Shown piece by piece: positions 5,357-64,000 of a DNA stretch of 64,000 nucleotides. The notes beneath the pieces were generated by a model, which searched no databases, was not told the DNA's origin, and worked only from the letters and a program-made list of their open reading frames with translations. Origin of the DNA: an uncultured Holophagales bacterium (GTDB taxonomy: Bacteria; Acidobacteriota; Thermoanaerobaculia; UBA2201); contig CAZRVT010000009.1 of assembly GCA_964603505.1 (NCBI GenBank), positions 309 through 64,308 on the forward strand. The letters are read 5' to 3'. Positions within the stretch are counted from its first letter, which is position 1, and the number at the start of each line of letters is the position of its first letter. The position numbers and the translations under genes were made by a program.

Positions 5357-6399
5357 ACGGTCTCCTTGGCGATGCGAAACGCCTCGACGGCCTCCTCGGG
5401 CAGGGGCGGCGCCGCCACCGTTTCCCGTTCCCCGCCCGGCCGCTCGACGGCCACGGTCACGGCTGTTCCGGGGGCGCGGGTGCAATACGAGGCCAGGATC
5501 CCCGCCGCCGTCCCCAGCTCGGCCGGGCCGGCGCCCGGCTCCAGGAGGGCGAAGGGGCCGGTGTGGCTCTCGGGGCGCAGGAGGATGAACCCCTCCCCCC
5601 GCTCCATAAGGAACTCGTTCTCCGACTCCTCGCGCCCCACGATGAGCTTGACCGCGGGGGAGAGGCGGAAATGGCGGCCGAACTTGAGGAGGAAGAAGTC
5701 CCGGTAGGGGACGTCGTCGATGGGGCGGTGGCGCACCAAGTCCAGAAAGCGCCACTTCAGATGGGGGTCGGTGAGGAAACAGCACCCCCCCGAGGGGGTG
5801 GGGTAGTCGGTCAGTCCGAACCGGGCCGCCAGCTCCATCTGCCGGATCCGCCGTCGTCCGGAGATGTCCAGCAGGCGCTCGCGGTCCACCTTCCCCTCCA
5901 GCTCGGCTCGGGTGGGCGGGAGTTGTTTGGCGCAGAGGGGCCGGACGATGAGCCCCTCCAGCCCGGCGGCCCGCTCGATCAGCTTCAGGGGGCGCGGCAT
6001 CTGGGTCATGGGGCGCTGGCCTAAGACCTCGCCGGTGAAGATGAAGTCCCACCCCTCCCTCTCCATGATGGCCCGGGCCTTCTGGAGCATGAAGATGCGG
6101 CAATCGATGCAGGGGTTGAATCCGGAGCCGTAGCCGTGCTTGGGGTGGCGCAGGATGCGCAGGTACTCCTCGCGGATGTCCACGATCTCCATGGGGATCT
6201 CGAAGGTGGAGGTGAACTTCCGGCCGTGGTGCACGGCCCGCTTCGCCCCCCGGCGAGGGACCCGCTGGGCCGCCTCCACCAGGCAGAAGCCGGTGTTGAA
6301 ATACAGCCCCCTGACTTCGATCCCCTGCTCCATCAGCAGGAGGGCGGCAAGGGAGGAATCAAGCCCTCCGGACAGGAGCCCCAAGGCCCTGACTTTCAT
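5338..6399 (-). CDS. PP-loop superfamily ATPase, ThiI-like tRNA sulfurtransferase type without THUMP domain
   Basis: SGGLDSS PP-loop motif near the N-terminus (MKVRALGLLSGGLDSS). NPCIDCRIFM and a downstream CCFL motif are reminiscent of ThiI. Start set at the MKVRALG ATG (6399) rather than the track start 6471. A TTGCCG-17-TACAAT promoter-like element lies immediately upstream. Confidence 0.7.
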   Translation of the reverse strand: MKVRALGLLSGGLDSSLAALLLMEQGIEVRGLYFNTGFCLVEAAQRVPRRGAKRAVHHGRKFTSTFEIPMEIVDIREEYLRILRHPKHGYGSGFNPCIDCRIFMLQKARAIMEREGWDFIFTGEVLGQRPMTQMPRPLKLIERAAGLEGLIVRPLCAKQLPPTRAELEGKVDRERLLDISGRRRIRQMELAARFGLTDYPTPSGGCCFLTDPHLKWRFLDLVRHRPIDDVPYRDFFLLKFGRHFRLSPAVKLIVGREESENEFLMERGEGFILLRPESHTGPFALLEPGAGPAELGTAAGILASYCTRAPGTAVTVAVERPGGERETVAAPPLPEEAVEAFRIAKETVWKRKN

Positions 6400-6405
6400 G
6401 GAGTT

Positions 6406-6434
6406 ATTGTAACCTATTCCCCGGCGGGCGGCAA
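6406..6434 (-). promoter_or_regulatory. Sigma-70-like promoter (TTGCCG-17 nt-TACAAT) 6 nt upstream of the PP-loop ATPase ATG; the transcript would be leaderless or nearly so
   Basis: Read on the minus strand: -35 TTGCCG, 17-nt spacer, -10 TACAAT, then aactcc ATG. Confidence 0.4.
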
Positions 6435-6494
6435 AAAGCGCGGCGAACGGTCCGCCGCCCTTTCGGGCCATCTAATTATGGTAAAATTGCCGGA

Positions 6495-7193
6495 ATGCAA
6501 ATCCGCTGCATGGCGGTGGTATGCCTGATGGCGGCCACCCTGCTCCCCGGCTACGAGGACCGGGTCATCTCCAAAGCGTCGCAGTACGCCCCGCAGGATC
6601 TGAAGCTCCTTTTCCGAAGCTTCGAGGAGGACTTCCGCCGCGGCCTTACGAAGCCGCCGGCGGCCACACCGGAAGCCCTGGACCGTCAGATTGCGGGGCT
6701 GATCCAGCGGATCAAGCGGCAGGAGCCGATGGCGCTCGTGGTGGAGGACCTCTCGGCCGTGGCCCGGGGGACGGTGCGGCTGCTGGATCCCGCCCTCGAC
6801 GGCCGGGCGGACCCCCTCGCCTCCCACATCCGGAAGGACTTCCCCCGGTACATGGAGCGGCGGCTGACCCGGTTCCCCGTCGTTTTCTACGGCTTCGACG
6901 GCCGCCTCCTGCGAGGGGACGCCCTCGGCTTCCTCCAAGAGAATCGGCGCGAAGTCACGCCGCTGGCCCAGCTCCTGCGGCAGGACTACTCGCGGACGGG
7001 CCAGTGGGCCGACTTCACCGCCTTCGACGACCAGAGCACCGCCTTCGGCGTGGCCCAGGTCACCGCCAACCGCGCCTTCTCGGCCGTCCTCAACATCTGG
7101 TACTATGTCTGGACACGGGGAGGCGGGCGGTGGGGCCCCCTCAAACCGGCGCTCAATACAGAAAGGGTATGGCTCTTCGGCTATGGCTATTAA
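6495..7193 (+). CDS. Hypothetical protein with an N-terminal hydrophobic/signal-like segment
   Basis: MAVVCLMAATLLPG is followed by a protein-like sequence (RIKRQEPMALVVEDLSAVARG...). The antisense ORF 6414..7400 is G/P-rich junk. The end overlaps the purH start by 10 nt. Confidence 0.5.
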   Translation: MQIRCMAVVCLMAATLLPGYEDRVISKASQYAPQDLKLLFRSFEEDFRRGLTKPPAATPEALDRQIAGLIQRIKRQEPMALVVEDLSAVARGTVRLLDPALDGRADPLASHIRKDFPRYMERRLTRFPVVFYGFDGRLLRGDALGFLQENRREVTPLAQLLRQDYSRTGQWADFTAFDDQSTAFGVAQVTANRAFSAVLNIWYYVWTRGGGRWGPLKPALNTERVWLFGYGY

Positions 7194-17857: not shown

Positions 17858-19146
17858 GCCGCTCCGAGACTCCGCGCGGCCTCGACCCCCGAACGGACGG
17901 CGTCCTCGTGGAAGCCGTTGTGGAAGTAGGCCCCGCAGAACCAGGTGCGCCGGGTCCCGTTGAGGCCGGGGAGGAGGGCCTGCGTGGCCACCGCCTCGCG
18001 CGTGTAGAGGGGATGGGCGAACTCCACCGATTCGATGACCCGATCCGGGGCGACGGCGGCGCGCCGATTGAGGGTGACGAGATACTCCTCCCGCGTCCGA
18101 AGCCCCTGCAGACGGTTCATGTGATAGGTCAACGAAACCGGGTCGCCGGGCGCGGCGCCGCGCTCCCGGGCGTAGTTCCACGAGGCCCACGCGCTCCGCG
18201 CCCGCGGAAGGACCGAGGCGTCGGTGTGGAGGATGGTGAGGTTGCGCGAATAGCGCCAGGCCCCCAGGAGGCGGCGCTCCTCCTCGGAAGGGTCGGCCAG
18301 GAGGGCCAGGGCCTCGTCGGCGTGGGTCGCCACGACGGCATGGTCGAACCGCTCCTCCGTCCCCCCGAAGCGGACGCGCACCCCCCCCTCCTCCCGGAGG
18401 AGGGCCTCCACGCGACAGGCCGTCCGCACCGTCCCGGCGAACCGCCGCAGGAACGCGTCCACATACGACCGGCTCCCCCCTGCGACGGTCTGCCAGCGGG
18501 GGCGGTCCCTCAGGGAGAGGAGCCCGTGGTTGCGGAAAAACCGCATGAAAGCGGCGGCGGGAAACTCCAGGATCCGGCCCGGGGCCGCCGACCAGATGGC
18601 CGCCCCCATCGGAAGGAGGTAACGCTCGCGGAACGGGGCCGAGTAGCCCCCCTCCTGGAGATACGCCCCCATCGTCACCGTCTCCAGGTCCCTCCGCCCC
18701 CGCAGGTCCTCCAGCGCCGAGCGGCTGAACCGCCGGATCTCCCACAGCATGCTCCAGAAGGCCGGGGAGAAGAGGTTCCGCCGCCGGGAAAAGAGGCCGT
18801 TGAGGGTCGTTCCGGCGTAGTGGAACCCGCTGGTCTCGTCGTGGTAGGCGAAGGACATGTCGCTCCACCGCCAGGCGACCCCGAGGTCGGCCAGCAACCG
18901 GTGGAGGGTGGGGTAGGTGCGGTCGTTGAGGACGATAAAGCCCATGTCCACCCGGGTCCCGGCGTCCGGCCCGGAAGGGACTTCGACCGTGTGGACATGT
19001 CCCCCCAGCCGGGGGCCCTTCTCGAAGAGGGTGACCCGGTGGCGCCCCTGGAGGAGGTGGGCGGCGGCGATCCCCGCCGCCCCCCCGCCGATGACGGCGA
19101 CGGTGCCGGGTGGCGGGGGGGGCATGGGCGTGGAGGGGGCGGGCAT
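17851..19146 (-). CDS. FAD/NAD(P)-binding amine-oxidase-family oxidoreductase (COG2907 type, UfaD-like)
   Basis: Dinucleotide-binding motif VAVIGGGAAGIAAAHLL and a flavin amine oxidase-like C-terminus (FCGAYFHNGFHEDAVRSG). Start set at MPAPSTP (19146) rather than track start 19230. Confidence 0.8.
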   Translation of the reverse strand: MPAPSTPMPPPPPGTVAVIGGGAAGIAAAHLLQGRHRVTLFEKGPRLGGHVHTVEVPSGPDAGTRVDMGFIVLNDRTYPTLHRLLADLGVAWRWSDMSFAYHDETSGFHYAGTTLNGLFSRRRNLFSPAFWSMLWEIRRFSRSALEDLRGRRDLETVTMGAYLQEGGYSAPFRERYLLPMGAAIWSAAPGRILEFPAAAFMRFFRNHGLLSLRDRPRWQTVAGGSRSYVDAFLRRFAGTVRTACRVEALLREEGGVRVRFGGTEERFDHAVVATHADEALALLADPSEEERRLLGAWRYSRNLTILHTDASVLPRARSAWASWNYARERGAAPGDPVSLTYHMNRLQGLRTREEYLVTLNRRAAVAPDRVIESVEFAHPLYTREAVATQALLPGLNGTRRTWFCGAYFHNGFHEDAVRSGVEAARSLGAAW

Positions 19147-28489: not shown

Positions 28490-29164
28490 TCACACGTGGC
28501 GCGGCGGAAGCGGCGGGGTCCCTCCGGGTCCGGGCGGGGCGTCGGTGCGCATCTCCACCCGCCCCGGATCCATCCCCTCGGGGAATTGGATGAAGGCCCC
28601 GTTGATCAAAACGATGTCCGCGTCGAAGCCCCGGGTCGTCCCCTCGGGCGTGTCCACGAGGTCCCATCGCTCCCATGCGCCGTCCTTCCCCGCGCTTCCG
28701 AGGGCGTAGAGGGTGGGGGCCTCGTCCGCCTCGTCCTGAAGCCACGACTCGTACTTCAGCGCCCGGCCCCAACCGTCGGTCCGGGGCATTGCCTGGATAT
28801 AAGCGGGCTCCAGCAGGGCGGCCAGTTCTTCGATGGTGCCGGCGTCGGGGTAGGCCTGGGCGTCGGTCGCGTAGGCCTCCACCGCCGCGGCGATCCGCCG
28901 CATGTCGGCGATGGTGCGCAGTTGTTTATGGCGTTCCGCGGCGTTCAGCAAGCGGGGGATAGCGACGAAGGCGGCGACGCCGCCGACCGCCAGGAGAAGG
29001 AGCATCCCGCCGGCGGCGAAGAGGGCGATATTGGCGGCGGCGGTCCCGCTGGAGGGGGCGGCCGGCGGGGCGGGGGCCTCTCCCCCGAACCCCGTGGCGG
29101 TCCCGCACCACCGGCAAAACCGGTCGGTGTCGCCGACGGAGGTGCCGCACCGGGGGCAGAACAT
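28490..29164 (-). CDS. Zinc-ribbon / TM / pseudopilin-like (GspG-type fold) fusion protein lacking a prepilin leader
   Basis: N-terminal CPRCG...CRWCG zinc ribbon, then a TM helix ending in the pilin-like AIP (VAAFVAIPRLLNAAERHKQLRTIADMRRIAAAVEAYATDAQAYPDAGTIEELAALL). The C-terminal WGRALKYES...LGSAGKDGAW resembles the GspG DPWGxxY...LGxDGxxGG core. There is no G-F/M-T-L-I-E prepilin peptidase site. Confidence 0.6.
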   Translation of the reverse strand: MFCPRCGTSVGDTDRFCRWCGTATGFGGEAPAPPAAPSSGTAAANIALFAAGGMLLLLAVGGVAAFVAIPRLLNAAERHKQLRTIADMRRIAAAVEAYATDAQAYPDAGTIEELAALLEPAYIQAMPRTDGWGRALKYESWLQDEADEAPTLYALGSAGKDGAWERWDLVDTPEGTTRGFDADIVLINGAFIQFPEGMDPGRVEMRTDAPPGPGGTPPLPPRHV

Positions 29165-29189
29165 TTATGCCCGCCCCCTCCGGCCAGCT

Positions 29190-29219
29190 GAAGGCGGAAG
29201 GCGGAAGGCGGAAGGGCGG
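29190..29219. repeat. Heptamer tandem array (GAAGGCG)x3-4 in the intergenic spacer, followed by two copies of AACTCTGA
   Basis: gaaggcg gaaggcg gaaggcg gaagggcgg, lying between the zinc-ribbon pseudopilin-like gene start and the next gene's stop. Confidence 0.8.
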
Positions 29220-29274
29220 CCCAGGCGGGACTCCGAACTCTGAGCTCCCAACTCTGAACTGGAGCGAAGCGACT

Positions 29275-52554: not shown

Positions 52555-53577
<1,023 letters not shown>

Positions 53578-53618: not shown

Positions 53619-54410
53619 ATGCGGGTGAAACGCAGCCTCGAGTTCCATCTGCTCGCCCTGGTCCTCCTGAACCTCGTCCTCCTGACGTTCCAGAGCCAAG
53701 CGGACCTCTGGGTGCGCGGCTTCTCCGCGGTCCTGGGGCCCCCCGTCATCCTCGTCCACCGCGCCCTCGACCGCGTGGCGGAGAGGTGGGAGCGTTTGGT
53801 GTCTCTCGGTCGGGCCCAGGAGGAGAACCGCACCCTCCGGGACCGCCTCTTCTGGGCCCGCCTCGACAACGACCGCCTGCGGATGGAGAACCTCTACCTG
53901 CAGGGGTTCCGCCGCTTGGCCGAACACCCCTCCCTGGAGGCGTCGGGCGGGAGGACCGTCGCCGTGGTTCGGCGGCGCAGCGCCAGCTACTCCGCGGAGC
54001 TCCTGGTGGACGCCGGCGCCCTCCGCGGCGTGAAAGCGGGCCAGATCGCCCTCGCTCCCGAGGGGGTCGTGGGGTTGGTGGTCGGCGTGGATGCCCTCAG
54101 CGCTACGATCCGCCCGGTCGTCCACCCCGACAGCGTGGTCTCGGTGGTGGACCTGCGCACCGGGACCCATGCCGTGGCCAAGGGGGACGGCACCGGCTTC
54201 CTGGAGCTCAAGTATCTCCCCCCCTATGCCGACGTGGCGCCGGGGGATCGGTTCGTCACCGACTGCTGGGACTTCCAGTACCACCCGGGGCTCCCGCTGG
54301 GCACCGCCGTGGAGGTGGGAGCCGACGAATCGCAGCTGAGGGTGCGGCTGCGGCCCCAGGCGGACCTTTCCTCGCTCCATTGGCTGACGCTCGTGAAGGA
54401 GGCCTCGTAG
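53619..54410 (+). CDS. mreC: Rod shape-determining protein MreC
   Basis: N-terminal TM, a coiled-coil (ENRTLRDRLFWARLDNDRLRMENLYLQ), then a beta-rich C-terminal domain. Position is immediately after mreB. Confidence 0.8.
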   Translation: MRVKRSLEFHLLALVLLNLVLLTFQSQADLWVRGFSAVLGPPVILVHRALDRVAERWERLVSLGRAQEENRTLRDRLFWARLDNDRLRMENLYLQGFRRLAEHPSLEASGGRTVAVVRRRSASYSAELLVDAGALRGVKAGQIALAPEGVVGLVVGVDALSATIRPVVHPDSVVSVVDLRTGTHAVAKGDGTGFLELKYLPPYADVAPGDRFVTDCWDFQYHPGLPLGTAVEVGADESQLRVRLRPQADLSSLHWLTLVKEAS

Positions 54411-54412
54411 CC

Positions 54413-54874
54413 GTGGGCCGCGCCCTGGCGGTCGCCGTGCTCTGTCTGTTGGCCCTCCGGGTCCAGTTCGGGCTCCTGCGCGATGCCGCCGTCCTGGACC
54501 CGCTCTTCGTGGGGGCGGTCTACGCCGCCCTGGTCCTGCGCGGGGCCGGGGCCCTTTGGCTGGCCGCCGCCCTTGGACTGGCCGGCGACTGGGTGAGCGG
54601 GACCCCTCTCGGGTTCGAGGGGGCCGCCCTGACGGCCACCGCCTACCTGGCGTTCCGCGCTGCCCGGCACCTCCTGGTCTCCTCGCGGGGCCCCCTGTTC
54701 CTGCTGGCCCTCCTCCTCTTCGTCGTCCACGAGGCGCTCCGCCGCCTCCTCGACCTCGCCCTCGGCCTGGGGCTGGGCCTCCCGTTCTCTCCCCCGCTGG
54801 CCGCCTCCGCCCTCCTCTCCGCGTTGGCGGCGGCCGCCCTCGGGTTCCGCCATGAAGAAAGAACGCCTGTTTGA
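54413..54874 (+). CDS. mreD: Rod shape-determining protein MreD
   Basis: A ~153-aa polytopic membrane protein with a GTG start 2 nt after the mreC stop. Assigned mainly by its position between mreC and mrdA. Confidence 0.55.
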   Translation: MGRALAVAVLCLLALRVQFGLLRDAAVLDPLFVGAVYAALVLRGAGALWLAAALGLAGDWVSGTPLGFEGAALTATAYLAFRAARHLLVSSRGPLFLLALLLFVVHEALRRLLDLALGLGLGLPFSPPLAASALLSALAAAALGFRHEERTPV

Positions 54875-56561
54875 AACGGCGGTGGTCCTCGGTTTCGCCG
54901 TCCTCCTCCTGCGCCTCTTCTCCATCCAGGTGCGTCACGGGGCCGAGTACGAGCAGATGGCGCTGCGCAACCACTTCCGCTACATCCCCATCCCCGCTCC
55001 GCGGGGAACCATCTGGTCGGCCGACGGCACCACGCTGGCCAGCAACCACGCCTCCACCGACCTGGTGGTCTACCGGGAGGAGATGGGGGACGCCGAGGCC
55101 CTGAAGCGGCGCCTCTGCCAGCTCCTGCCTTACCGCGCGGAGGAGGTGCAGGCGCGGTGGCGGCAGATGGCCCATACCCCCGCCTATATTCCCCACCCCG
55201 TCCTGTCCGACCTCCGGGACGACGAAATCCCGATTATCGAGCTGGAAAAGGTGCGGTTCCCCGAGTTGGCGGTGGTCAAGCCCATGCGCCGCCTCTATCC
55301 CACCGCCGATCTCTTCTCGCACGCCCTCGGCTACATCGCAGAACTCTCCCCCGAGGACGAGGGGGCGGCGGGCGGGCGGGTGGGCGATTGGGTGGGCAAG
55401 GCGGGGCTGGAGCGCTCCTACAACGACCGGCTCCGAGGGGCCGACGGCCGGTGGGCCGTGGTTGTGGACAGCCGTGAACGCGAGGTGGCCCGGTACCTGG
55501 TGGCGCGGGCCCAGGACGGCAACCCGCTTTCCACCGGCCTCCGTATCGGCCTCCACCAGGTGGCCCGCGAGATGTTCGGGGAAGACAGCGGCGCGGCGGT
55601 GGTGATGGACGTCCAGACCGGGCAGGTACTCTGCTATTATTCCTCCCCCAGCTACCCGGCCGTTCCCCCTACCTCCAGCCTGGCGCAGGCGGTCTGGAAG
55701 CAGGTCTTCGCCGACCCGCGCAAGCCGATGCTGGATCGGGTCTCCCAGGGGACCTACGCCCCGGGCTCGGTCTTCAAGGTGATTCTGGCCGCGGCGGCGC
55801 TGGAGGAGGGGATCTGGGGGCCCGCACGGGGGGTCTCCTGCAACGGGGCGTTCCAGTTCGGCAACAAGGTGTTCCGGTGCTGGAACCGGGGCGGGCACGG
55901 CTGGGTGGATCTGCGCCGGGCGCTCATTGTCTCGTGCGACGTTTACTTCTACCAGCTCGGCCTTGCCCTGGGGGTGGACCGCATCCAGGCCTGGGCGCAG
56001 CGGTTCGGGATGGGGACCCGCACGGGGGTGGACCTCCCCTTCGAGAAGCCGGGGCTGGTCCCCTCCGAGGAGTGGAGCCGGCGGGTGCGGGGGGTCCCAT
56101 GGTTCCCCGGCGAGACGGTGTCGCTGGCCATCGGCCAGGGGCCGGTGCTCGTCACGGCGATGCAGGTGTGTCAGATCTATGGCGCCATCGCCAACGGCGG
56201 CGCCCTTCTGACCCCCCGGCTCGCCGCCGGGGGGGCGCCGCAGCGGCGGGCCGTCGAGGTCTCCCCCTCCACCCTGGCCTTCCTCCGCCAGGCCCTCGGC
56301 GATGTCGTGGCGGAGCCCGGAGGGACCGCCCACCGGCAGGAGCAGGACGGGCTCCCCACGATCGCGGGCAAGACCGGTACATCCCAGGTGATGTCCGAGG
56401 TGGACGGGAAACCCTACCTCAAGGAGCACGCGTGGTTCGCCGGGTTCGCCCCCCGCGGGAACCCCCGGGTGGCGTGCGCCGTGCTGGTGGAGCACGGGGG
56501 CCACGGCTCGGAGGCCGCGGCCCCGCTGGCCGCCGCGCTCATGCGGGAGGCGCTCAAATGA
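54852..56561 (+). CDS. mrdA: Penicillin-binding protein 2 (elongasome transpeptidase)
   Basis: SVFK (SxxK), SCN (SxN) and KTGTS (KTG) active-site motifs. N-terminal TM and dimerisation domain. Lies between mreD and rodA. Confidence 0.9.
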   Translation: MKKERLFETAVVLGFAVLLLRLFSIQVRHGAEYEQMALRNHFRYIPIPAPRGTIWSADGTTLASNHASTDLVVYREEMGDAEALKRRLCQLLPYRAEEVQARWRQMAHTPAYIPHPVLSDLRDDEIPIIELEKVRFPELAVVKPMRRLYPTADLFSHALGYIAELSPEDEGAAGGRVGDWVGKAGLERSYNDRLRGADGRWAVVVDSREREVARYLVARAQDGNPLSTGLRIGLHQVAREMFGEDSGAAVVMDVQTGQVLCYYSSPSYPAVPPTSSLAQAVWKQVFADPRKPMLDRVSQGTYAPGSVFKVILAAAALEEGIWGPARGVSCNGAFQFGNKVFRCWNRGGHGWVDLRRALIVSCDVYFYQLGLALGVDRIQAWAQRFGMGTRTGVDLPFEKPGLVPSEEWSRRVRGVPWFPGETVSLAIGQGPVLVTAMQVCQIYGAIANGGALLTPRLAAGGAPQRRAVEVSPSTLAFLRQALGDVVAEPGGTAHRQEQDGLPTIAGKTGTSQVMSEVDGKPYLKEHAWFAGFAPRGNPRVACAVLVEHGGHGSEAAAPLAAALMREALK

Positions 56562-56612
56562 ACCTCCGCCACTGCTGGTTCCAAGTTCAGAGAATGCCGG
56601 GACGGGGTGGAC

Positions 56613-56646
56613 AACCCGGAACCCGGAACCCGGAACCTGGAACCGG
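56613..56646. repeat. Heptamer tandem array (CCCGGAA)x3 + CCTGGAA in the mrdA-rodA spacer
   Basis: aa cccggaa cccggaa cccggaa cctggaa ccgg. Its reverse complement is the GTTCCGG-type unit seen in other intergenic arrays in this window. Confidence 0.85.
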
Positions 56647-56661
56647 CAGGGGAGGGCGGGC

Positions 56662-57756
56662 GTGAGCGCGCGCGCCACCGGCCCGGTCTTCCGCCGGCCC
56701 CTCCGGCTCCGGCACTGGGACCCTGTCTTCTCCCTGGTGCCCCTCTTCTTCACCCTGGCGGGCCTCTACCTCATCGCGGTCACCGTGCCGAGGGCCCTCC
56801 CCGCCCAGGCGGCATACGCCGCCGCCGGCGTCGCCCTCTTCCTGGCGGTCACCGTCCTGGGGCACGGCCTCTTCGTCCGGTTCTCCCGGGTCCTCTACGG
56901 ACTGTTCGTCCTCCTCCTCCTCGCGACCCTCTTTTTCGCCCCCCCCATCGCCGGGAGCCGCGCGTGGCTGGTCCTGGGGCCCCTCCACTTCCAGCCGGCG
57001 GAGTGGATGAAGCCGGTCCTGGCGCTGGCCCTGGCCGAGCTCTACATGCGCCCCCCCGCCCGCCTCTCCCGCCTCCTGGTCCTCGGGACGGTCCCCCTGG
57101 CCCTGGTGCTGGCCCAGCCCGACCTGGGGACCGCCGTCGCGCTGGGGACGGTGACGGCGGTGGCCCTCTACTTCCAGCGGTTCTCCCTCCGGATGGTGGT
57201 CACCGTGGCCGTGGCGGGCGCCGTCGTCTTCCTCGCCGCCTGGCTCTTCCTGTTCAAGCCGTACCAGAAACAGCGCATTCTCACCTTCCTGTTCCCCTCC
57301 TACGCCACCTCCCACTCGGGCTACCAGGCGAAGCAGTCGCTCATCGCCGTGGGGTCGGGGCGCCTGCTGGGGCGCGGGATGTCCCTCTCGACCCAGACCC
57401 AGCTCCGGTTCCTCCCGGCGCAACACACCGACTTCATCTTCGCCACCCTGGCCGAGCGCCGGGGCTTCCTGGGCGCGTCCATCGCCCTGGGGCTCTTCGC
57501 CCTCCTCATCCTCCGGATGACCGCGGCGGGGCGGGCCTCGCCGGAGCCCGACGCGAGGATGCTGGCCTTCATGATCGCGGGGTTCTTCTCGTTCCACGTG
57601 ATGTACAATATCGCGATGGTCGTGGCGCTCGTTCCCATCACCGGGATCCCCCTGCCCTTCCTCTCCTACGGGGGCTCGTTCCTGACGGCCTGCTGGTTCT
57701 CCGCGGGGCTCCTCCATTCGGTCTCCATCCGGCGGTACGGGCAGTATGAAAGTTGA
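56662..57756 (+). CDS. rodA: SEDS-family peptidoglycan glycosyltransferase RodA
   Basis: FtsW/RodA/SpoVE family multi-TM protein (QPAEWMKP, PDLGTA, FIFA..E.GF). Sits immediately after mrdA. Confidence 0.9.
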   Translation: MSARATGPVFRRPLRLRHWDPVFSLVPLFFTLAGLYLIAVTVPRALPAQAAYAAAGVALFLAVTVLGHGLFVRFSRVLYGLFVLLLLATLFFAPPIAGSRAWLVLGPLHFQPAEWMKPVLALALAELYMRPPARLSRLLVLGTVPLALVLAQPDLGTAVALGTVTAVALYFQRFSLRMVVTVAVAGAVVFLAAWLFLFKPYQKQRILTFLFPSYATSHSGYQAKQSLIAVGSGRLLGRGMSLSTQTQLRFLPAQHTDFIFATLAERRGFLGASIALGLFALLILRMTAAGRASPEPDARMLAFMIAGFFSFHVMYNIAMVVALVPITGIPLPFLSYGGSFLTACWFSAGLLHSVSIRRYGQYES

Positions 57757-59218
57757 CCTCGTCGTCGCCGCGCGGGGCCTCCTCGACCGGGTGGTCCTGC
57801 TGGAGGACGACCAACCCCAGGAGTTCTACCTCGAGTCGAAGGCCGAGCCCTCCCTGGTCGGGAACATCTACAAGGGGATCGTCCAGAAGGTCCTGCCCGG
57901 GATGGAGGCCGCCTTCGTGGACCTGGGGCTCCCGAAGAACGCCTTCCTCTACAAGCGCGACGTCCTCGACGAGTGGCAGGAGTACGCCGACCTGTTCGGC
58001 CCCGCGCCCGCCGCGCCGCCGCGGCGGGCCGCCATCGACGAGATCCTCCGCGAGGGGCAGACGGTCCTGGTGCGGGTGCGCCGGGGGGAGCGGGCCTCCA
58101 AGGGGGCGCGCGTCACCACCGTGGTCACCCTGGCGGGGCGCACCCTCGTCTACCTCCCCTTCAACGAGTTCTCCGGCGTCTCCCGCCGCATCGAGGGCGA
58201 CGCAGAGCGCCAGCGCCTGCGCGACGCCTTGGAGTCGCTGGGCCCTCCGCCGGCGGGGGGCTTCATCGTCCGCACCGCGGCCCAGGGGCTCCCCGCGGAG
58301 GCGCTCGCCCTCGACCGGGACGCCCTCCTGCGGCGCTGGGAGGCCATCCTGCGCCGGGCCGATGCCGTGAAGGCCCCCGCGCTGCTGGAGGAGGAGCTGC
58401 CCCTCTACCTCCGGGTCCTGCGCGACCGGATGGGGACGGAGATCCGCTCCATCACCGTGGACGACCGCGCCGCCCTCGACCGCCTGGCCGCCTTCCTGGA
58501 GGACCCGCCCCACGACCTGCGGCGCCGCCTCCGCCTCTACGAGGGGGCCGTCCCGCTCCTGGAGGACCTGGGGCTCCGGAAGGACCTGGACCGCGCCCTG
58601 GGGCGCCGGGTGTGGCTCAAGAGCGGCGGCACCCTGGTGGTGGACCAGACCGAGGCCCTGACGGCCATCGACGTCAACAGCGGCAAGTACGTGGGGAAGC
58701 GCGGGCTCAACGAAACGGCCCTCAAGATCAACCTCCAGGCGGTCAAGGAGGTGGTGCGTCAGATCCGCCTCCGCGACCTGGGGGGCATCATCGTCGTGGA
58801 CTTCATCGACATGGGCCCGGAGCGCCTGCGGCGCGAGCTGATGGAGGCGTTTCACACCGAGATGAAGCGGGACCGCTCCCGCTCCCGCGTCGAGGCGCTG
58901 TCGGCCTTCGGCCTCCTGCAGCTCACCCGCAAGCGCCTGTACGGCTCCCCCGAACAGACGGCCCTGCGGGAGTGCCCCTGCTGCGGGGGCGCCGGGCGCG
59001 TCCGGTCGGCCGCCCTGCTCGCGCAGGAGGTCTTCGACCACATCGTCCAGGTCCGGGCCTCCGCACCGGGCCGGCCGCTGGTCGTGCGGTGCCATCCCGA
59101 GGTGGTCCGGGAGCTGGAAACGGAGCCCTGGCGCGAGCGGCTGGCCGCCCTCGGGCTCGAGTGGACCGTCCAGCCCACGGAAGGAGAAGAGCGTGAACGC
59201 CACGAGATCATCGCCTGA
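57746..59218 (+). CDS. rng: Ribonuclease G (RNase E/G family)
   Basis: N-terminal S1 domain (GNIYKGIVQKVLPGMEAAFVDLG) and the DNase I-like catalytic region with LTAIDVNSG and IIVVDFIDM. Zn-link CPCCGG. Length 490 aa. Confidence 0.9.
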   Translation: MKVDLVVAARGLLDRVVLLEDDQPQEFYLESKAEPSLVGNIYKGIVQKVLPGMEAAFVDLGLPKNAFLYKRDVLDEWQEYADLFGPAPAAPPRRAAIDEILREGQTVLVRVRRGERASKGARVTTVVTLAGRTLVYLPFNEFSGVSRRIEGDAERQRLRDALESLGPPPAGGFIVRTAAQGLPAEALALDRDALLRRWEAILRRADAVKAPALLEEELPLYLRVLRDRMGTEIRSITVDDRAALDRLAAFLEDPPHDLRRRLRLYEGAVPLLEDLGLRKDLDRALGRRVWLKSGGTLVVDQTEALTAIDVNSGKYVGKRGLNETALKINLQAVKEVVRQIRLRDLGGIIVVDFIDMGPERLRRELMEAFHTEMKRDRSRSRVEALSAFGLLQLTRKRLYGSPEQTALRECPCCGGAGRVRSAALLAQEVFDHIVQVRASAPGRPLVVRCHPEVVRELETEPWRERLAALGLEWTVQPTEGEERERHEIIA

Positions 59219-60191
59219 GCCGGGGCGGCCGACGAAGGCCGAACTCTTGGAGATGCTCCGCGCCTTTGTCGGGCGGCGGGTGGTGGTGTGGGCCGACCTG
59301 GGGGTGGACCGCTACCTCTGGGGCGCCCCCAAGCGGGTCTCCCGCGAGGCCCCCGTCCTCATCCTGGGGGTCCGCCGGGAGTGGTGGGTCCCCGGGGGCG
59401 GCGCCAACGCCGTCATGAACCTCCGCGCCTTGGGGGGGGAACCCGTCCCCGTCGGCGCGGTGGGGGGGGACGAGGACGGCGCCCGCCTCCTGGAGTGCTT
59501 CCGCCGGCGGGGCATCCCCATCCGGCACATCCGGACCGTGCGGGGCTATCGGACCGTCTCCAAAACCCGCGTCCTGGCCGGCCCCGACACCGGCGTGAAG
59601 CAGCAAGTGGTCCGGTACGACCGGGAGGAACCCCTCCCCGAAGGGATGCGCATCGTCCCCGACGGGGCGCTCCGGGCCGACGCCCTCGTCGTCTCCGACT
59701 ACGGTTACCGCGCCGTCGATCCCGCCGCCCTGGGGCGGCTGCGTCCCGGCGTCCCCGTGGTGGTGGACAGCCGGTTCCGCCTTCTGGAGTTCCCCCGCGT
59801 CGCGGCGGTGACTCCCAACGAGGAGGAGGCGGCCCGGGCCGCGGGGCTGGCCATCGCCTCCGACGCCGACGCGGAAGCCGCCGGCCGCCGCATCCTCCGG
59901 GCGCTGAAGGCCGGCACCCTCCTCATGACGCGCGGCTCGCGGGGCGTCCTCCTTATGGAGCCCCGAAAGCGTCCCCACGCCATTCCCGCCCACGGCGACG
60001 GCGAGGTGGCCGACACCACCGGCGCGGGCGACACCGTCCTGGCCGCCTTCACCCTAGGGCTGGCCGCCGGGTTTTCCCCGGGCCATGCCGCGTTCCTGGC
60101 CAATATCGCCGGGGCGCTGAAGGTGCGCAAGCTGGGCACCGCGACGGTGTCGGCCGAGGAACTGCGGCGTGAGATCGACGCGTCCCTCTAA
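59193..60191 (+). CDS. hldE: D-glycero-beta-D-manno-heptose-7-phosphate kinase (HldE domain I / RfaE1, PfkB family)
   Basis: VVVWADLGVDRY, GGGANAVMN and DTTGAGDTV (PfkB signature). Collinear with the E. coli HldE N-terminal domain. An alternative start is MLRAFVG at 59253. Confidence 0.8.
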   Translation: MNATRSSPEPGRPTKAELLEMLRAFVGRRVVVWADLGVDRYLWGAPKRVSREAPVLILGVRREWWVPGGGANAVMNLRALGGEPVPVGAVGGDEDGARLLECFRRRGIPIRHIRTVRGYRTVSKTRVLAGPDTGVKQQVVRYDREEPLPEGMRIVPDGALRADALVVSDYGYRAVDPAALGRLRPGVPVVVDSRFRLLEFPRVAAVTPNEEEAARAAGLAIASDADAEAAGRRILRALKAGTLLMTRGSRGVLLMEPRKRPHAIPAHGDGEVADTTGAGDTVLAAFTLGLAAGFSPGHAAFLANIAGALKVRKLGTATVSAEELRREIDASL

Positions 60192-60651
60192 GATCCTCGC
60201 CCTTGCCGACCTCCCCGCCCTGCGCGAGCGGGCGGAGCGCGAGGGGCGGACCATCGCCTTCGCCAACGGATGTTTCGATCTCCTCCATGTGGGACATGTC
60301 CGCTACCTTGAGGCGTCCGCCCGTGAGGCCGACCTGCTCGTGGTGGCGGTCAACGACGACGACTCCGTCCGCCTCCTCAAGGGGGCCGGACGGCCGCTGA
60401 TGCCGGTGGGGGAGCGGATGGAGATCCTGGCCGCCCTCGCGTGCGTGGATTTCCTGGTGCCGTTTCCCGGTCGGCAGCCCCTGGCCGTCATAAAGGCTCT
60501 CCGTCCCCACGTCCAGTGCAAGGGCACCGATTACACCGTCGAGGCCGTTCCGGAGCGGGAGCTCGTGGAGCGCCTCGGCGGCCGCGTGGCCATCGTGGGG
60601 GACCCCAAGGACCATTCCACGACCGCCCTCTTGAAGAAGATGGGGAAGTGA
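60169..60651 (+). CDS. D-glycero-beta-D-manno-heptose-1-phosphate adenylyltransferase (HldE domain II / RfaE2)
   Basis: FANGCFDLLHVGHVRYLE is the cytidylyltransferase HxGH motif. A ~160-aa separate ORF overlapping the kinase gene's end. Confidence 0.85.
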   Translation: MRSTRPSKILALADLPALRERAEREGRTIAFANGCFDLLHVGHVRYLEASAREADLLVVAVNDDDSVRLLKGAGRPLMPVGERMEILAALACVDFLVPFPGRQPLAVIKALRPHVQCKGTDYTVEAVPERELVERLGGRVAIVGDPKDHSTTALLKKMGK

Positions 60652-60660
60652 TGCACCAGC

Positions 60661-60697
60661 CGTTCGGGGTCCGGCGTTCCGCGTTCCGCGTTCCGCG
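60661..60697. repeat. Heptamer tandem array (CGTTCCG)x3 preceded by a degenerate unit
   Basis: cgttcgg ggtccgg cgttccg cgttccg cgttccg cg, located between the hldE adenylyltransferase and the heptosyltransferase. Confidence 0.85.
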
Positions 60698-60763
60698 CAA
60701 GGGGGGGCGGGACGCTGGACCCCATGCGCCGTGCACGGTACGGCTCTTTATGGGAGGGCGGGG

Positions 60764-61684
60764 GTGAAAGTGGCCGTCCTGCGGCTTTCCGCGTTTGGGG
60801 ACGTCGTCCATGTCCTTCCGCTCTGCTTCGTCCTCAAGCGGGGCCTGCCGAACACCGAGGTCCTTCTGGCCACCGCGGAGCGTAACGCCGTCTGGACGAT
60901 GGACCTCCCCTTCCTCGACCGCGTCCTCGCCCTCCCCGCCGCGCCGGGCGCCACCGCGAAGGTTCTTCGAGCGGAGATTTTGGACGCCCTGCTTGACGCG
61001 CAGGGGCTCTATAAATCGGCCCTCGTCGCCTTCCGATCCGGCGCTTGCCTCCGCGGCGGGTTTGGGTTCGGGGCGTGCCGGGAGCCCCTAGCCGCCCTGG
61101 CCTACCACCGCCACGCCGCGCCGCCGTGTCGGGCGCACATCATCGACAAGAACCTGGCCCTGGCGGCCTTGGCGGGGGTTTCCGACCGTTCGCTGAACGG
61201 CTATTCCCTCGCGGCCGTCGCCGCCGATCCGCGGGGGACGGTGGAGTCATTCCTCCGTTCCCTCCACGGCCGCCGTCCCGCCGTCCTCCACCCCTTCTCG
61301 AGCCGGCGGGACAAGGATTTTCCCCTCGACCCGTTGAAGGCGCTGATACCCTCCCTTCGGGCGAGGGGCTGGGAACCGGTCCTCTCCTCCGGTCCCGGGC
61401 AGGAGCCGATGGCGGAGCAGGCCGCGGCGCACCTCGGTTGCCGCCGGATGCCGCCCCTCGATGTGCGGGAGACCGCCGCCCTGTTGTCCGTTGCCGCCTG
61501 CCTCGCCGCCCCCGACACCGGGTTCCTCCATCTGGCCGACGCTCTGGGGGTCCCCACCCTTTCCTGGTTTACGCGCCTCCCCGCGTGGCGCAACGGGCCG
61601 CGGTTCTCCCGGCACCTCGTCTTCGACCGGATTCCACCGGACCCCCGGACGATGGGGGAGTTCGTGGAGGCGTTGTCGGCATGA
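60764..61684 (+). CDS. Glycosyltransferase family 9 (ADP-heptose:LPS heptosyltransferase-like)
   Basis: GTG start giving VKVAVLRLSAFGDVVHVLP (typical GT9 N-terminus). GGGAGGG RBS 5 nt upstream. C-terminal APDTGFLHLADALGVPTLSWF. Confidence 0.75.
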   Translation: MKVAVLRLSAFGDVVHVLPLCFVLKRGLPNTEVLLATAERNAVWTMDLPFLDRVLALPAAPGATAKVLRAEILDALLDAQGLYKSALVAFRSGACLRGGFGFGACREPLAALAYHRHAAPPCRAHIIDKNLALAALAGVSDRSLNGYSLAAVAADPRGTVESFLRSLHGRRPAVLHPFSSRRDKDFPLDPLKALIPSLRARGWEPVLSSGPGQEPMAEQAAAHLGCRRMPPLDVRETAALLSVAACLAAPDTGFLHLADALGVPTLSWFTRLPAWRNGPRFSRHLVFDRIPPDPRTMGEFVEALSA

Positions 61685-61688
61685 CGAA

Positions 61689-61785
61689 GTTCCTGGTTCC
61701 GAGTTCCGAGTTCCGAGTTCCCCCCGCCCGGGCCGGCTTGGTAGGGTGTTTTGCCCGGAACCAGGAACCAGGAACCCGTAACCGG
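61689..61785. repeat. Inverted pair of heptamer arrays, (GTTCCGA)x3-4 and (GGAACCA)x3, flanking a 35-nt GC-rich spacer; potential long stem-loop
   Basis: Left arm gttcctg gttccga gttccga gttccga gttcc. Right arm ggaacca ggaacca ggaaccc gtaacc is its approximate reverse complement. Lies directly after the heptosyltransferase stop. Confidence 0.8.
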
Positions 61786-61799
61786 CGGGTGGTTGCGGG

Positions 61800-62486
61800 G
61801 TGATCCTTCCCCTGCTCCTCGCCGCCACTGCCGCCGCCCCCTGGGCCGGCGGGGAGCGGCTGGACTACACCCTCCACTGGATGGGGATGCGGGTGGGGAC
61901 GATGACGCTGACGGCCCGGGATGCCGGAGAGAACTGGGCGTTCTTCCTTGCCACCCAAACCGAGGGGGCGGGGGCGAAGATCTACCCGGTCGAGCAGGAG
62001 CTGGAGTCCCTCGTCCGCAAGGCCGATTTCCAGACCCTCTATTTCCGCAAATGGGAGCACAAGCCCGGAAAACCCGAGAAAGAGGGGGAGACCCTCCTGG
62101 ACCTCGAGGGCGGCTGGCTCTACTACCGCGACTTCAAACCCCTCCCCTGGCCGTGCGTGGACACCCTTTCGTTCATCCACCTCCTCCGCCTCTCCCCCGC
62201 GGTCCCCCGCGCCCCGCCCCGGGCCTACGACCGCGGCAAGTTCTACCGCCTCACCCTGCAGGACCAGGGGGAGCGGGAGATCACGGTCGCCGGGCGGCGG
62301 GTCCGGGCCCGCAAGGTGGTCCCGAAGATGGTGGAGGAGGGGGGGAAGAAGCCCCGGAAGGGGAGCATGGTCCTCTGGCTCGGCCCCGGCCCGTCCCGCC
62401 TCCCCCTGCGCATAGATTTTTCCATCCCCCTGGGGACCCTCCGGGCCGAGCTGGCCTGCGAGCCACAGGAGGCCCGGCCTAATTAG
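61800..62486 (+). CDS. Secreted hypothetical protein, DUF3108-like
   Basis: GTG start. Signal MILPLLLAATAAAPWAGG, then a beta-rich region with Trp/Tyr motifs (LDYTLHWMGMRVGTMTLTA...). The family assignment is tentative. Confidence 0.5.
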   Translation: MILPLLLAATAAAPWAGGERLDYTLHWMGMRVGTMTLTARDAGENWAFFLATQTEGAGAKIYPVEQELESLVRKADFQTLYFRKWEHKPGKPEKEGETLLDLEGGWLYYRDFKPLPWPCVDTLSFIHLLRLSPAVPRAPPRAYDRGKFYRLTLQDQGEREITVAGRRVRARKVVPKMVEEGGKKPRKGSMVLWLGPGPSRLPLRIDFSIPLGTLRAELACEPQEARPN

Positions 62487-62677
62487 CGATGGTCTGCTAT
62501 AATGAATGCTGATAGCCTCCAGGAGATATCAATTGTCGAACAATAGGCCACTGACCCCGAATCGTCTTGCGGCCCGTTTGAGTGCCAGTGGCTCGGCCCG
62601 AGGCACCAGTTCCGATGGGGTTGCGCATGGAGCCGCCTGCGGCTACAGGTGTCGAATCAGTTGAAGGGAAACGCTCG

Positions 62678-64000
62678 ATGAACTCGATAAGATCAAGAAT
62701 CCTGTTTATCAGCATCGCCATGTTGTTCACTGAGATATTCCTCATCCGCTGGATATCAACGGAAATCCGTGTTTTCGCTTATGTCAGCAACCTGGTGTTG
62801 TTGGCTTGTTTTATTGGCATCGGGGTTGGTTGCTGCTTCGCGGATCGAAAAGGGTCTTTGCTTTGGAGCTATGGCTTTATAGGCGTATTGGTTTTAGCGG
62901 TCCGATCAAAGGTCTTTGTCAAGATCACCGATTACATTGCCCATTTCTCCGATTCTGTCATTTGGCAGCAAACCAAACCGGAAGACGTCCTTTTGCCCTC
63001 CGTCCTGGGTTTCTTGCTCACGTTAATCATGTTCGGCATAATTGTGGCGGTATTCATCCCCATGGGGCAGATTCTTGGGAGTCTTTTCAATCGCAGCCAT
63101 GAAGCGATCATTGCCTATTCGGTCAACATCGTGGGGAGCATCGCGGGCACATGGCTGTTCGCCCTTGTCGCATACTTCAACGCTCCACCGTGGGTCTGGC
63201 TGGTTCTCGCATTGTTGCTGGGGGCACCGTTGATTTCATGGAGCCGCATCAATGGCTTGGTATTCGCCGGAATTGCGATATCTTCCATCACCGTCATGCT
63301 CGCGCCAACGGTCAGCCGCGTCCTCACCATATGGAGTTCCTATCAGAAATTGGAAGTATACGAAAATACTCTTCCGGGAAGTAAAACGAAAAACGGATAT
63401 GGCGTTCTGGTCAATTCTATAGGCTACATGTGGCTGATTGATCTCTCCCGTACCTTTATGGAGCAACACCTCGGGCGGTATTCACCCGGCGTCAAGGCGC
63501 TATACGAGGTGAATCAGTACGAATTGCCCTTCCTTCTTCATCCTTCGCCTTCCGAAGTGTTGATTCTCGGAGCGGGGGGGGGAATGATGTGGCGGGCGCG
63601 CTCCGGCGGCAAGTCCCTCGGATCGATGCCGTGGAGATTGATGCCGCCATTTATAGGATTGGCCGCCTCTATCATCCGGAAAGGCCGTATCAGCAGCCCA
63701 ATGTGACGGTTCACATTGAGGACGCCCGCACCTTTCTACAGCGGTGCGACCGTCGATACGACGTCATCAGTTTCGGATTGCTGGACTCGCACACACAGGG
63801 ATCAAGCTATAACAACATCCGCCTCGATCATTATGTTTACACGATCGAGGGGCTCCAGAGTGCCAAAGCCCGGCTGAAGCCGAATGGGATCCTGTGTCTG
63901 CTATTCATGGCGGAGCGCGATTGGATCACCCAGCGCCTCTACGGTATGCTGGAAGGTGTGTTTCATAAGCCACCTTTGGTCCTTAGCCTGCCGTCCACCA
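62678..64000 (+). CDS. Polytopic-membrane-domain / spermidine-synthase-like fusion protein, interrupted by a +1 frameshift at a G10 tract (possible pseudogene, phase-variable gene or homopolymer sequencing error); runs off window end
   Basis: The N-terminal ~300 aa is multi-TM. The frame then reads VLILGAGGG (a SAM glycine motif) into a stop at 63706. The +1 frame continues NDVAGALRRQVPRIDAVEIDAAIYRIGRLY...VTVHIEDARTFL...YDVISFGLLDS, which are spermidine-synthase motifs. One extra G in the G10 run would fuse the frames. GC is ~47-50%, far below the window average. Confidence 0.7.
63574..63583 (+). repeat. Homopolymeric G10 tract at the frameshift point of the spermidine-synthase-like gene
   Basis: agcgggggggggg aatgatg. 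11 G would restore a continuous ORF. Confidence 0.9.

Follow-up and report, generated by a model that had tools for sequence, protein, structure and literature searches.

Heptamer-repeat arrays in the spacers of a Holophagales cell-envelope gene string as arms of predicted intercistronic stem-loops

The question raised by this locus is what short tandem arrays of seven-nucleotide units, of the type GTTCC followed by two variable bases, are doing in the spacers between cell-envelope genes of an uncultured Holophagales bacterium (Acidobacteriota). The stretch analyzed in this study, hereafter the window, comprises 64,000 nt of contig CAZRVT010000009.1 (GenBank assembly GCA_964603505.1) and has a G+C content of 68.1%. 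In one string of co-directional genes, three spacers carry arrays that form the arms of predicted stem-loops, and the place of these arrays is conserved in distant relatives, in which the core of the unit changes and the two arms of a spacer stay complementary. We infer from this architecture that the arrays are arms of intercistronic stem-loops acting as structural punctuation of a polycistronic mRNA, in the manner of repetitive extragenic palindromes (REPs), a reading to which we give about an even chance. Our confidence is far greater in the structure described than in this function.

The arrays are present at all of the positions originally predicted. Tandem Repeats Finder (TRF) reported GAAGGCG in 3.7 copies at 29190-29215 (100% matches), a period-14 repeat at 29231-29257, a period-7 array of 4.6 copies at 56613-56644 (96% matches), GCGTTCC in 3.4 copies at 60674-60697 (100%, with degenerate copies from 60661, the lag scan giving 60662-60702), AGTTCCG in 4.9 copies at 61688-61721 (88% matches) and GGAACCA in 2.9 copies at 61757-61776 (100% matches). 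Tandem repetition of a 7-nt unit was thus found by TRF and by exact-period scans in five arrays, with 2.9-4.9 copies and 88-100% matches. A lag-identity scan of the window likewise gave five arrays at period 7, and 0, 0, 1, 0, 0, 0, 0 and 1 at periods 4, 5, 6, 8, 9, 10, 11 and 12, respectively; 20 local block shuffles of the window yielded 0-1 period-7 arrays each (mean 0.2). A spacing of exactly 7 nt occurs six times for GTTCC and five times for GGAAC in the window, with 0-1 occurrences at spacings of 5, 6, 8, 9 and 10. The same preference was seen in a protein-ascertained sample of 254 kb, which contains 15 arrays at period 7, none at period 6, two at period 8 and none at periods 9-12. Since an independent assembly, that of SRR12686701 in Logan, is 100% identical to the window over 58785-64000, the arrays are not assembly errors.

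The location of the arrays is equally biased. All four array loci fall within the 9.8% of the window outside long open reading frames (ORFs) with biased G+C at third codon positions (GC3), an outcome expected by chance at ~9e-5. Each locus is flanked by genes on the same strand. Three of them stand in one co-directional string identified by Pfam as mreB-mreC-mreD-mrdA-rodA-rng-hldE kinase-hldE adenylyltransferase-GT9-DUF3108, in which most junctions are stop/start overlaps and three are spacers of 100-115 nt, each of the three with arrays. These spacers are designated A (mrdA to rodA), B (adenylyltransferase to the GT9 heptosyltransferase) and C (GT9 to DUF3108). The predicted concentration of arrays around elongasome and lipopolysaccharide (LPS) genes therefore stands as a matter of position, as they occur in 3/3 spacers of the string versus 1/19 elsewhere in the window (p = 0.003), and the position is conserved.

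All three spacers share the same layout, namely (GTTCCNN)n in the 5' arm, a G+C-rich loop and (NNGGAAC)n in the 3' arm, and the units are, as had been proposed, orientation variants of one core of GTTCC plus two variable bases. The predicted folds are long imperfect hairpins with free energies (dG) of -51 to -60 kcal/mol and z scores of -2.9 to -3.5. They start 4-14 nt past the upstream stop codon. In A and C, 12-24 nt separate the end of the hairpin, which adjoins the Shine-Dalgarno (SD) sequence, from the next start codon; in B, the distance is about 40 nt. As the 5-nt cores are base-paired and the 2-nt linkers often are not, each helix is a run of 4-6-bp blocks split by small mismatches; the array-to-array helices of the predicted folds measure 12+4 bp in A, 17 bp in B and 10+5 bp in C.

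Between the stop codon of mrdA and the GTG start of rodA, spacer A (56562-56661, plus strand) is nearly all one hairpin (dG -54.2, z -3.35). Its 5' arm, CTGCTGGTTCCAAGTTC (56572-56588, plus strand), consists of two GTTCN heptamer units, GGTTCCA and AGTTCAG, and its 3' arm (56611-56649, plus strand) of five GGAACCN units with a closing GGCAG, the period being exactly 7 over 56613-56644. The main helix of 12 bp joins CUGCUGGUUCCA (56572-56583) with UGGAACCGGCAG (56638-56649), and a second helix of 4 bp joins GUUC (56585-56588) with GAAC (56633-56636). Downstream of the array lie the SD sequence GGGGAGGG and the rodA GTG at 56662, and in the minimum-free-energy fold GGCGGG at 56655-56660, between the SD sequence and the GTG, is the pairing partner of UCCGCC at 56565-56570, which lies just past the stop codon of mrdA.

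Hairpin B has a 5' arm of GTTCGGG, GTCCGGC and three GTTCCGC units (60661-60697, plus strand; TRF and lag scan) and a 3' arm of degenerate inverted heptamers, GCGGGAC, GCTGGAC and CCC (60707-60723, plus strand). Its helix of 17 bp pairs GGGGUCCGGCGUUCCGC (60666-60682) with GCGGGACGCUGGACCCC (60707-60723) at a dG of -59.8 and a z of -3.47; over the full length of spacer B in the window, the sense strand folds at -69.7 and the antisense strand at -47.1.

Hairpin C starts 4 nt past the GT9 stop with GTTCCTG, three GTTCCGA units and GTTCC (61689-61721, plus strand) and ends 16 nt before the DUF3108 GTG at 61800 with two GGAACCA units, GGAACCC and GTAACCG (61757-61783, plus strand). The two arrays are separated by the predicted 35 nt, and the pair at 61689-61785 does fold, in prediction, as a long stem-loop, with a main helix of UCCUGGUUCC (61691-61700) and GGAACCAGGA (61764-61773), an additional GUUCC:GGAAC helix, a dG of -51.4 and a z of -2.94. 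The underlying inverted repeat has 20-nt arms that are 90% complementary. The inverted pair proposed for this last spacer was accordingly recovered, but it is not the sole one, because partner arms are also present at 56572-56588 and 60707-60723. The numbers of units differ between the arms of a hairpin (2 versus 5 in A, 5 versus 3-4 in C), which suggests independent expansion of each arm.

With this geometry, the favored reading might operate in several ways. A strong hairpin starting 4-14 nt past a stop codon would lie partly within the reach of the terminating ribosome and, in A and C, would end at the next SD sequence, and downstream initiation could depend on the opening of the hairpin, for example by the ribosome terminating just upstream, and hence on translation of the upstream gene. 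Alternatively, the untranslated spacer of about 100 nt could be kept folded, so that Rho or RNase E could not load, or the hairpin might serve as a barrier or processing site that gives unlike stabilities to the flanking mRNA segments.

Among the roles that the original prediction had offered, a REP-like structural element is the best fit. REP elements and bacterial interspersed mosaic elements are imperfect palindromes that lie between cistrons or at the 3' ends of enterobacterial operons, are transcribed and stabilize the upstream mRNA. Liang, Rudd and Deutscher are said to have reported in 2015 that REPs within ~15 nt of a stop codon affect the translation of the upstream gene, and the hairpins of the window also begin within that distance. 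Unlike REPs, which have a consensus of 20-40 nt and an associated tyrosine transposase (RAYT), hairpins A, B and C share only GTTCC/GGAAC and differ in loops, linkers and lengths; moreover, these hairpins have an internal period, and the scanned window proteins include no RAYT.

The suggestion that the arrays are terminators was not borne out. Like intrinsic terminators, the hairpins are G+C-rich stem-loops past a stop codon; unlike them, their stems are far longer and interrupted, and the SD sequence of the next gene follows directly. None of the array hairpins is followed by a U tract, the next bases being GGCAGGGGAGGG, ATGCGCC and GCGGGUGG. A terminator scan returned as its sole terminator-like site a small separate G+C-rich hairpin at 60728-60744 (plus strand; consensus scan), located downstream of hairpin B and upstream of the GT9 start at 60764 and followed by TCTTTAT, and this count equals the shuffle expectation. 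Sites for CsrA/RsmA were also considered and rejected, since GGA is lost in relatives (GAAAC in those designated L002, L007/L008 and L134) and the motifs are in stems and not in loops. Integron attC sites, which mark the 3' ends of mobile promoterless cassettes, have the order RYYYAAC ... GTTRRRY; here the cores are reversed, with GTTYC first and GRAAC second, the units misfit GTTRRRY, and the flanking genes are syntenic housekeeping genes, so this candidate was dismissed as well. No Rfam 15 family reached its gathering score anywhere in the window, the only match at E <= 1 over 54000-64000 was a sub-threshold CRISPR-DR20 inside rng, and no tRNA was found by ARAGORN.

Among 5.8 billion proteins, the GT9 protein was found to have few relatives, five with 76-81% and five with 49-53% identity; the gene order of their contigs equals that of the window, and further relatives came from a metagenome scan. 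Arrays are kept in spacer C of all eight lineages with sequence available, as inverted pairs in the window, L002, L008/L010, L133/L138, L134/L139, L135 and L141 and as the left arm in L012, and the spacer-C arrays are conserved down to 49% GT9 identity. The 5' and 3' units of this spacer are GTTCCGA and GGAACCA in the window, GTTTCAA and CCTGAAA in L002 (GCA_002327305.1, contig DCUZ01000068.1; 21 kb examined), GTTTCAA and CCAGAAA in L008/L010, and AGTCTCG and GAGACTC in L134/L139. In L133, GTTCCAA x4 is followed past a 130-nt loop by CCTGGAA x4; in L135, the units are GTTCGGA x4 and CCTGGAA x4; in L138, AGTTCAG x4 in two modules faces CTCTCAA x5; and in L141, AGTTTCG x4 faces CAACTCG x3 in two modules. 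Spacer A arrays are likewise conserved in L002 and L007-L009.

Spacer B is the most variable of the three. It contains CGTACCG/CGCGGAA in L007, CTGCGAG x7 in L002, a period-8 arm in L012 and L133/L138 and 4-5 arrays over 235 nt in L137/L141, and it is absent from L134, L135, L143 and L145, in which stop and start overlap. The period-8 arrays (AGCGTCGC, CTTCCGGC) that replace heptamers in this spacer are located at 1918-1952 in L012, at ~640-680 in L133 and upstream of 1501 in L138, and some of them are paired with a period-7 arm.

Across these relatives, the core takes the forms GTTCC/GGAAC (window, L133), GTTTC/GAAAC (L002, L008), GTCTC/GAGAC (L134) and CGAGTT/AACTCG (L141). The turnover includes double changes, GTTTC:GAAAC to GTCTC:GAGAC, and the arms of one spacer stay complementary. 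Complementarity of 6/7 was seen in 9/21 adjacent array pairs versus 4.6% of random pairs from the same data (p = 1.6e-7), and on the sense strand the relatives' spacers fold with z <= -3 in 5/10. The arrays probably arise and change length through slipped-strand duplication of 7-nt units within each arm, because unit numbers differ between arms, linkers are homogeneous per arm, and modules are duplicated in L137, L138 and L141. Complementarity of the arms may then be kept by selection on pairing or by template switching within the hairpin.

The same data bear on the proposal that the arrays are DNA sites for a repeat-recognizing regulator, which they do not support, as it is the complementarity of the arms and not their sequence that is conserved. 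A more specific version would see in them tandem -35-like boxes (GGAAC/GAAAC) for an extracytoplasmic function (ECF) sigma factor or direct-repeat operators for an envelope-stress regulator. GGAAC and TGAAAC do resemble ECF -35 elements, and envelope genes are concerned in the window. Against this, the last GGAAC unit is too close to the start codon (15-24 nt) to accommodate a -10 element, a transcription start site and an SD sequence in between; relatives show no conserved -10 element (CGT in the window, CAT in L007), a sigma-70 scan gave no promoter-like site, and arrays also occur in a trp operon, described below. We therefore hold a DNA-level role to be scarcely likely at all.

The comparison also speaks to the suggestion that the arrays are slippage-prone tracts and, by extension, that they are phase-variable contingency repeats whose copy number switches the neighboring gene. 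Tandem repeats in regulatory positions with copy numbers that differ between relatives would suit such switching. However, the copy number is identical across the five contigs L002-L006 and the five contigs L007-L011, which represent two relatives and come from different samples, although this is a weak test since the contigs are 99.8-100% identical (0-0.2% diverged). In addition, a high slippage rate would call for more than the 3-5 copies of a 7-mer seen here, and the genes on either side have housekeeping roles. The slippage-prone tract thus fails to find support, and contingency switching appears barely credible.

A mobile or once-mobile palindromic element, similar to REP/RAYT or to miniature inverted-repeat transposable elements, inserted into the spacers is very unlikely in our view. 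The elements are palindromic, intergenic, several per genome and widespread, including in viral contigs, and mirrored multi-unit arrays surround a low-GC ORF in L002, all of which would be in keeping with mobility. On the other hand, all that the window elements A, B and C have in common is a 5-nt core, their consensus, loops and termini being unlike; no target-site duplications, transposase or RAYT were seen nearby (window proteins scanned), and orthologous positions across deep divergence argue against recent insertion.

The distribution of such arrays extends far beyond this lineage. A scan for GTTYCNN x4 in one genome per species found at least 120 stretches, and the counts that follow are among the matches listed. 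Acidobacteriota are the most frequent phylum, and the other hosts include Bacteroidota (many of them Flavobacterium), Cyanobacteria, Planctomycetota, Verrucomicrobiota, Desulfobacterota, Gemmatimonadota and Chloroflexota; GTTYCNN x4 is also frequent among the IMG/VR viral contigs listed. The commonest units are GTTTCAG, GTTCCCT, GTTTCAA and GTTTCGA, and the GTTYC core recurs in genomes of 31-71% GC. Long GTTCCCT arrays, which resemble the cyanobacterial STRR sequences described below and reach 59 copies, were seen in cyanobacteria as well as in other phyla, their hosts including Trichormus, Fischerella and Dolichospermum. Period 7 outnumbers every other period at least 9-fold in these loci, which were chosen for arrays.

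Orientation was used as the test of position in the other phyla, and the class of arrays "inside an ORF" was not relied on, because heptamer arrays free of stop codons lengthen spurious ORFs. An inverted partner lies within 150 nt of 28 arrays, and the order GTTYC-then-GRAAC outnumbers the reverse 21:7. An ORF of at least 100 aa starts within 30 nt downstream on the GRAAC-reading strand of 42/122 arrays, compared with 18/124 on the other strand, and the start-proximal GRAAC-reading arrays include partnerless ones.

A case in a distant phylum was found in Flavobacterium reichenbachii DSM 21791 (NZ_MUHF01000017.1, locus 4849-6503), in which three consecutive spacers of trpE-trpG-GNAT-trpD-trpC are filled by hairpins. 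Their order is stop codon, (GTTTCAR)3-4, a loop of 4-7 nt, (YTGAAAC)3-4, an A-rich leader and ATG, and the sense-strand z scores are -7.7 for trpG/GNAT, -4.35 for GNAT/trpD and -3.85 for trpD/trpC. The window thus exemplifies an architecture that is widespread. Since it is also found in this trp operon, the element is not specific to envelope genes, and the concentration around elongasome and LPS genes does not hold as a functional link; within the relatives of the window, too, arrays occur in the ftsX/ABC-transporter spacer and around a hypothetical ORF in L002, as well as in the spacer upstream of hldE in L134. The examined 21 kb of L002 contain six arrays. As Flavobacterium strains are cultivable, the question of heptamer repeats is experimentally approachable there.

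The enrichment of GRAAC-reading arrays, partnerless ones included, within 30 nt upstream of starts invites a reading in which the arrays are a binding platform for a protein with a 7-nt footprint on single-stranded RNA, one molecule per heptamer; proteins with a cold-shock domain, an S1 domain or an RNA recognition motif (RRM) would be candidates. Such a protein would melt or lock the hairpin and thereby set the translation or stability of the next cistron, which would account for both the strict period of 7 and the imperfect, meltable helix. CspB of Bacillus subtilis binds one heptanucleotide per protein with the consensus GTCTTTG/T (PMC1904285), and the 5'-arm units GTTCCGA, GTTTCAA and GTCTCGA share G-T-Y-Y with it. 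A comparable idea was raised for the TAACTGA direct repeats of Beggiatoaceae, Cyanobacteria and Bacteroidetes, which occur in 2-6 copies in intergenic regions and for the most part share a single orientation, close before a start codon; post-transcriptional action was proposed for them, with S1, Csp or CsrA-like proteins as suggested binders (MacGregor 2015, PMC4679880). The arrays described here resemble TAACTGA repeats in being heptamers scattered over distant phyla and near start codons, and they differ in the unit and in pairing, inverted sets being 1/170 there and the paired form being dominant here. Nevertheless, the unit varies within the lineage (GTTCC, GTTTC, GTCTC, CTGCGAG, CCTTCCG), unlike the target of a sequence-specific binder, and period 8 replaces period 7 in spacer B of L012 and L133/L138. 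Such a platform is accordingly an unlikely explanation. A broader proposal, that GTTYC/GRAAC hairpins constitute a cross-phylum class of intercistronic RNA elements seen in the lineage of the window, Flavobacterium, Acidobacteriota, PVC phyla, Desulfobacterota and phage-like contigs, and that their 7-nt period stems from the binding of one conserved chaperone with an oligonucleotide-binding (OB) fold or RRM per heptamer, a putative protein that would open or lock the hairpin and so tune individual cistrons of an operon in translation and stability, is to our mind comparably improbable.

The locus on the minus strand near 29190 extends the family in another direction. The original prediction had treated it as a different heptamer array, but its sense-strand unit, CTTCCGC, differs from the spacer B unit GTTCCGC at a single base, and we therefore assign it to the same family. 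The sense-strand order is five degenerate GTTCNGA units (29261-29227), CCTTCCG x4 (29187-29215, minus strand; 3.7 copies and 100% matches by TRF), the SD sequence GGAGGGGG about 10 nt further downstream, and ATG (29164). The degenerate array, read from the sequence as GTTCAGA, GTTGGGA, GCTCAGA, GTTCGGA and GTCCC... (29227-29261, minus strand), includes the two copies of AACTCTGA that had been noted earlier; these are indeed present, but as part of the x5 array and not as an element of their own. The GTTCAGA/GTTCGGA unit also builds the spacer-C arrays of L138 and L135. The gene that follows (28490-29164, minus strand) encodes a small protein with a zinc ribbon and a domain similar to the type II secretion system G pseudopilin (Pfam).

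Several observations weigh against a simple RNA-hairpin reading, and they have to be set against the evidence above. The 29190 array lacks an inverted partner, and its fold is not significant (z +1.06). Spacer B is dispensable, as its absence from L134, L135, L143 and L145 demonstrates. The arms in this lineage are 6/7 complementary and never 7/7, and z is near 0 in 4/10 of the relatives' spacers. In several spacers, the antisense strand folds more strongly than the sense strand (-30.7 sense versus -47.9 antisense, -38.5 versus -53.3 and -76.1 versus -97.5), and in spacers A and C of L002, L007, L010 and L133 it is better by 7-21 kcal/mol. The mismatch that recurs in hairpins of the GTTYCAA/CCTGRAA type is A.C in the sense strand and G.U in the antisense strand, so the antisense strand often folds better; sense-strand G.U asymmetry was consequently abandoned as a sign of RNA function, the picture being mixed and this type pointing the opposite way. 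Two conspecific contigs differ by seven single-nucleotide polymorphisms (SNPs), 3 of which lie in spacer C with its 124 nt, and this spacer is accordingly not under strong constraint. A switch of template within the hairpin could mimic compensatory evolution without selection, and the hairpin model gives no reason for the period of 7.

Because of this evidence, the main rival to the favored explanation is that the arrays are a non-functional by-product of heptamer-biased slippage in tolerated spacers, in which template switching keeps the arms alike and the arrays persist by regeneration; we regard this as possible but rather doubtful. Heptameric simple sequence repeats (SSRs) are over-represented in many genomes, and slippage related to the polymerase footprint has been proposed as the cause, as far as the survey of Mrazek (2007) is summarized in PMC4692102. 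Consistent with a by-product, units, copy numbers and module numbers change freely among relatives, from one hairpin in spacer B of the window to the 4-5 arrays of L137/L141; spacer B has been lost in four lineages, SNPs cluster in spacer C, and the sense strand has no consistent folding advantage. What speaks against this rival is that relatives with as little as 49% protein identity keep spacers of ~100 nt at the junctions that have them in the window, the other operon junctions being overlaps; that strand-blind mutation would not give rise to the orientation biases (42 vs 18 and 21 vs 7); and that the GTTYC core is common to genomes of 31-71% GC. If functional, the stem-loops would represent a widespread, unannotated control layer inside operons; if non-functional, the arrays would be a clean case of a period-specific mutational process shaping bacterial spacers.

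Heptamer repeats are not new as such. The short tandemly repeated repetitive (STRR) heptanucleotides of cyanobacteria, reportedly described by Mazel et al. in 1990, are said to be the oldest example; they are mentioned in PMC4692102 and appear among the references of PMC7593598. The window arrays are similar to STRR in that tandem heptanucleotide units are intergenic and belong to several unit families per genome. They differ in that STRR arrays are mostly unpaired and tend to be long (up to 59 copies among the matches listed), whereas those of the window have 3-5 copies and are paired in hairpins, and in that the gene content of the window, with its ADP-heptose LPS genes, is not cyanobacterial.

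The nearest parallel is provided by the GGGAATC arrays of Xanthomonas, which have 2-18 units, mostly ~4, and for the most part separate ORFs of like orientation (Rehm et al. 2015, PMC4692102). Each genome has 70-75 convergent inverted pairs that are potential stem-loops, and 83% have the same gene context in two species, with length and sequence varying and the single or paired type being kept (PMC4692102). The window arrays agree with these in standing between co-oriented genes, in forming inverted pairs and in their conserved context. In contrast, GGGAATC is G-rich and has been studied as a G-quadruplex former, and the GTTCC/GGAAC units of the window have no G tracts; furthermore, the lineage is another one, and conservation around the window is deeper (49% protein identity) and accompanied by core turnover. 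According to the same report, heptameric SSR over-representation was found in 2007 and detailed literature on heptameric SSRs is lacking (PMC4692102). A full-text literature search with the array sequences returned only unrelated primer matches. Over-representation of heptamers has hence been noted since 1990 (STRR) and in the 2007 survey, with no accepted function or reason for the 7 nt, and the present locus adds a new unit family to an already known class of intergenic heptameric repeats. New here are the deep positional conservation, the core turnover with arms that stay complementary and the fixed geometry of stop codon, hairpin, ribosome-binding site and start codon.

The genes of the string were assigned by Pfam as MreB (52555-53577, plus strand), MreC and MreD (between MreB and PBP2), PBP2 encoded by mrdA (54852-56561, plus strand), RodA of the FtsW/RodA family (56662-57756, plus strand), an RNase E/G family protein encoded by rng (57746-59218), a PfkB-type kinase corresponding to the N-terminal half of HldE (59193-60191), a cytidylyltransferase-like protein corresponding to its C-terminal half (60169-60651), the GT9 heptosyltransferase (60764-61684) and DUF3108 (61800-62486). 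After DUF3108, the spacer within 62487-63706 is more A+T-rich and has no array, and the next gene has a GC3 of 0.63 compared with ~0.9 and no Pfam match; this region is probably the operon end or foreign DNA.

In L002, the region 18163-19018 contains the low-GC ORF mentioned above (~18328-18743), flanked by mirrored multi-unit arrays. Upstream of it are purine-rich arrays of GGAAGNN, GAGAGAC and GTAGATG with ~4 copies each, and downstream are their complements, CCTCTCT, CATCTAC and CCTTCCG/CCTTCAG, which are not in mirror order. This ORF may be an inserted gene, or the arrangement may serve pairing between 5' and 3' untranslated regions.

At the other end of the window, a GTCCNNN x5 run at 14-46 resembles the heptamers but was not accepted as a family member, being coding sequence of a lower-G+C RHS/YD-repeat gene. 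This gene is represented by a protein fragment (…TTDQGQGTTDYAYD) at 1-650 on the minus strand, with 56% G+C, and adjoins a region of 73% G+C. Next to it, 727-4614 on the minus strand encodes a protein of 1295 aa that combines TPR repeats with a sigma-54 activator domain.

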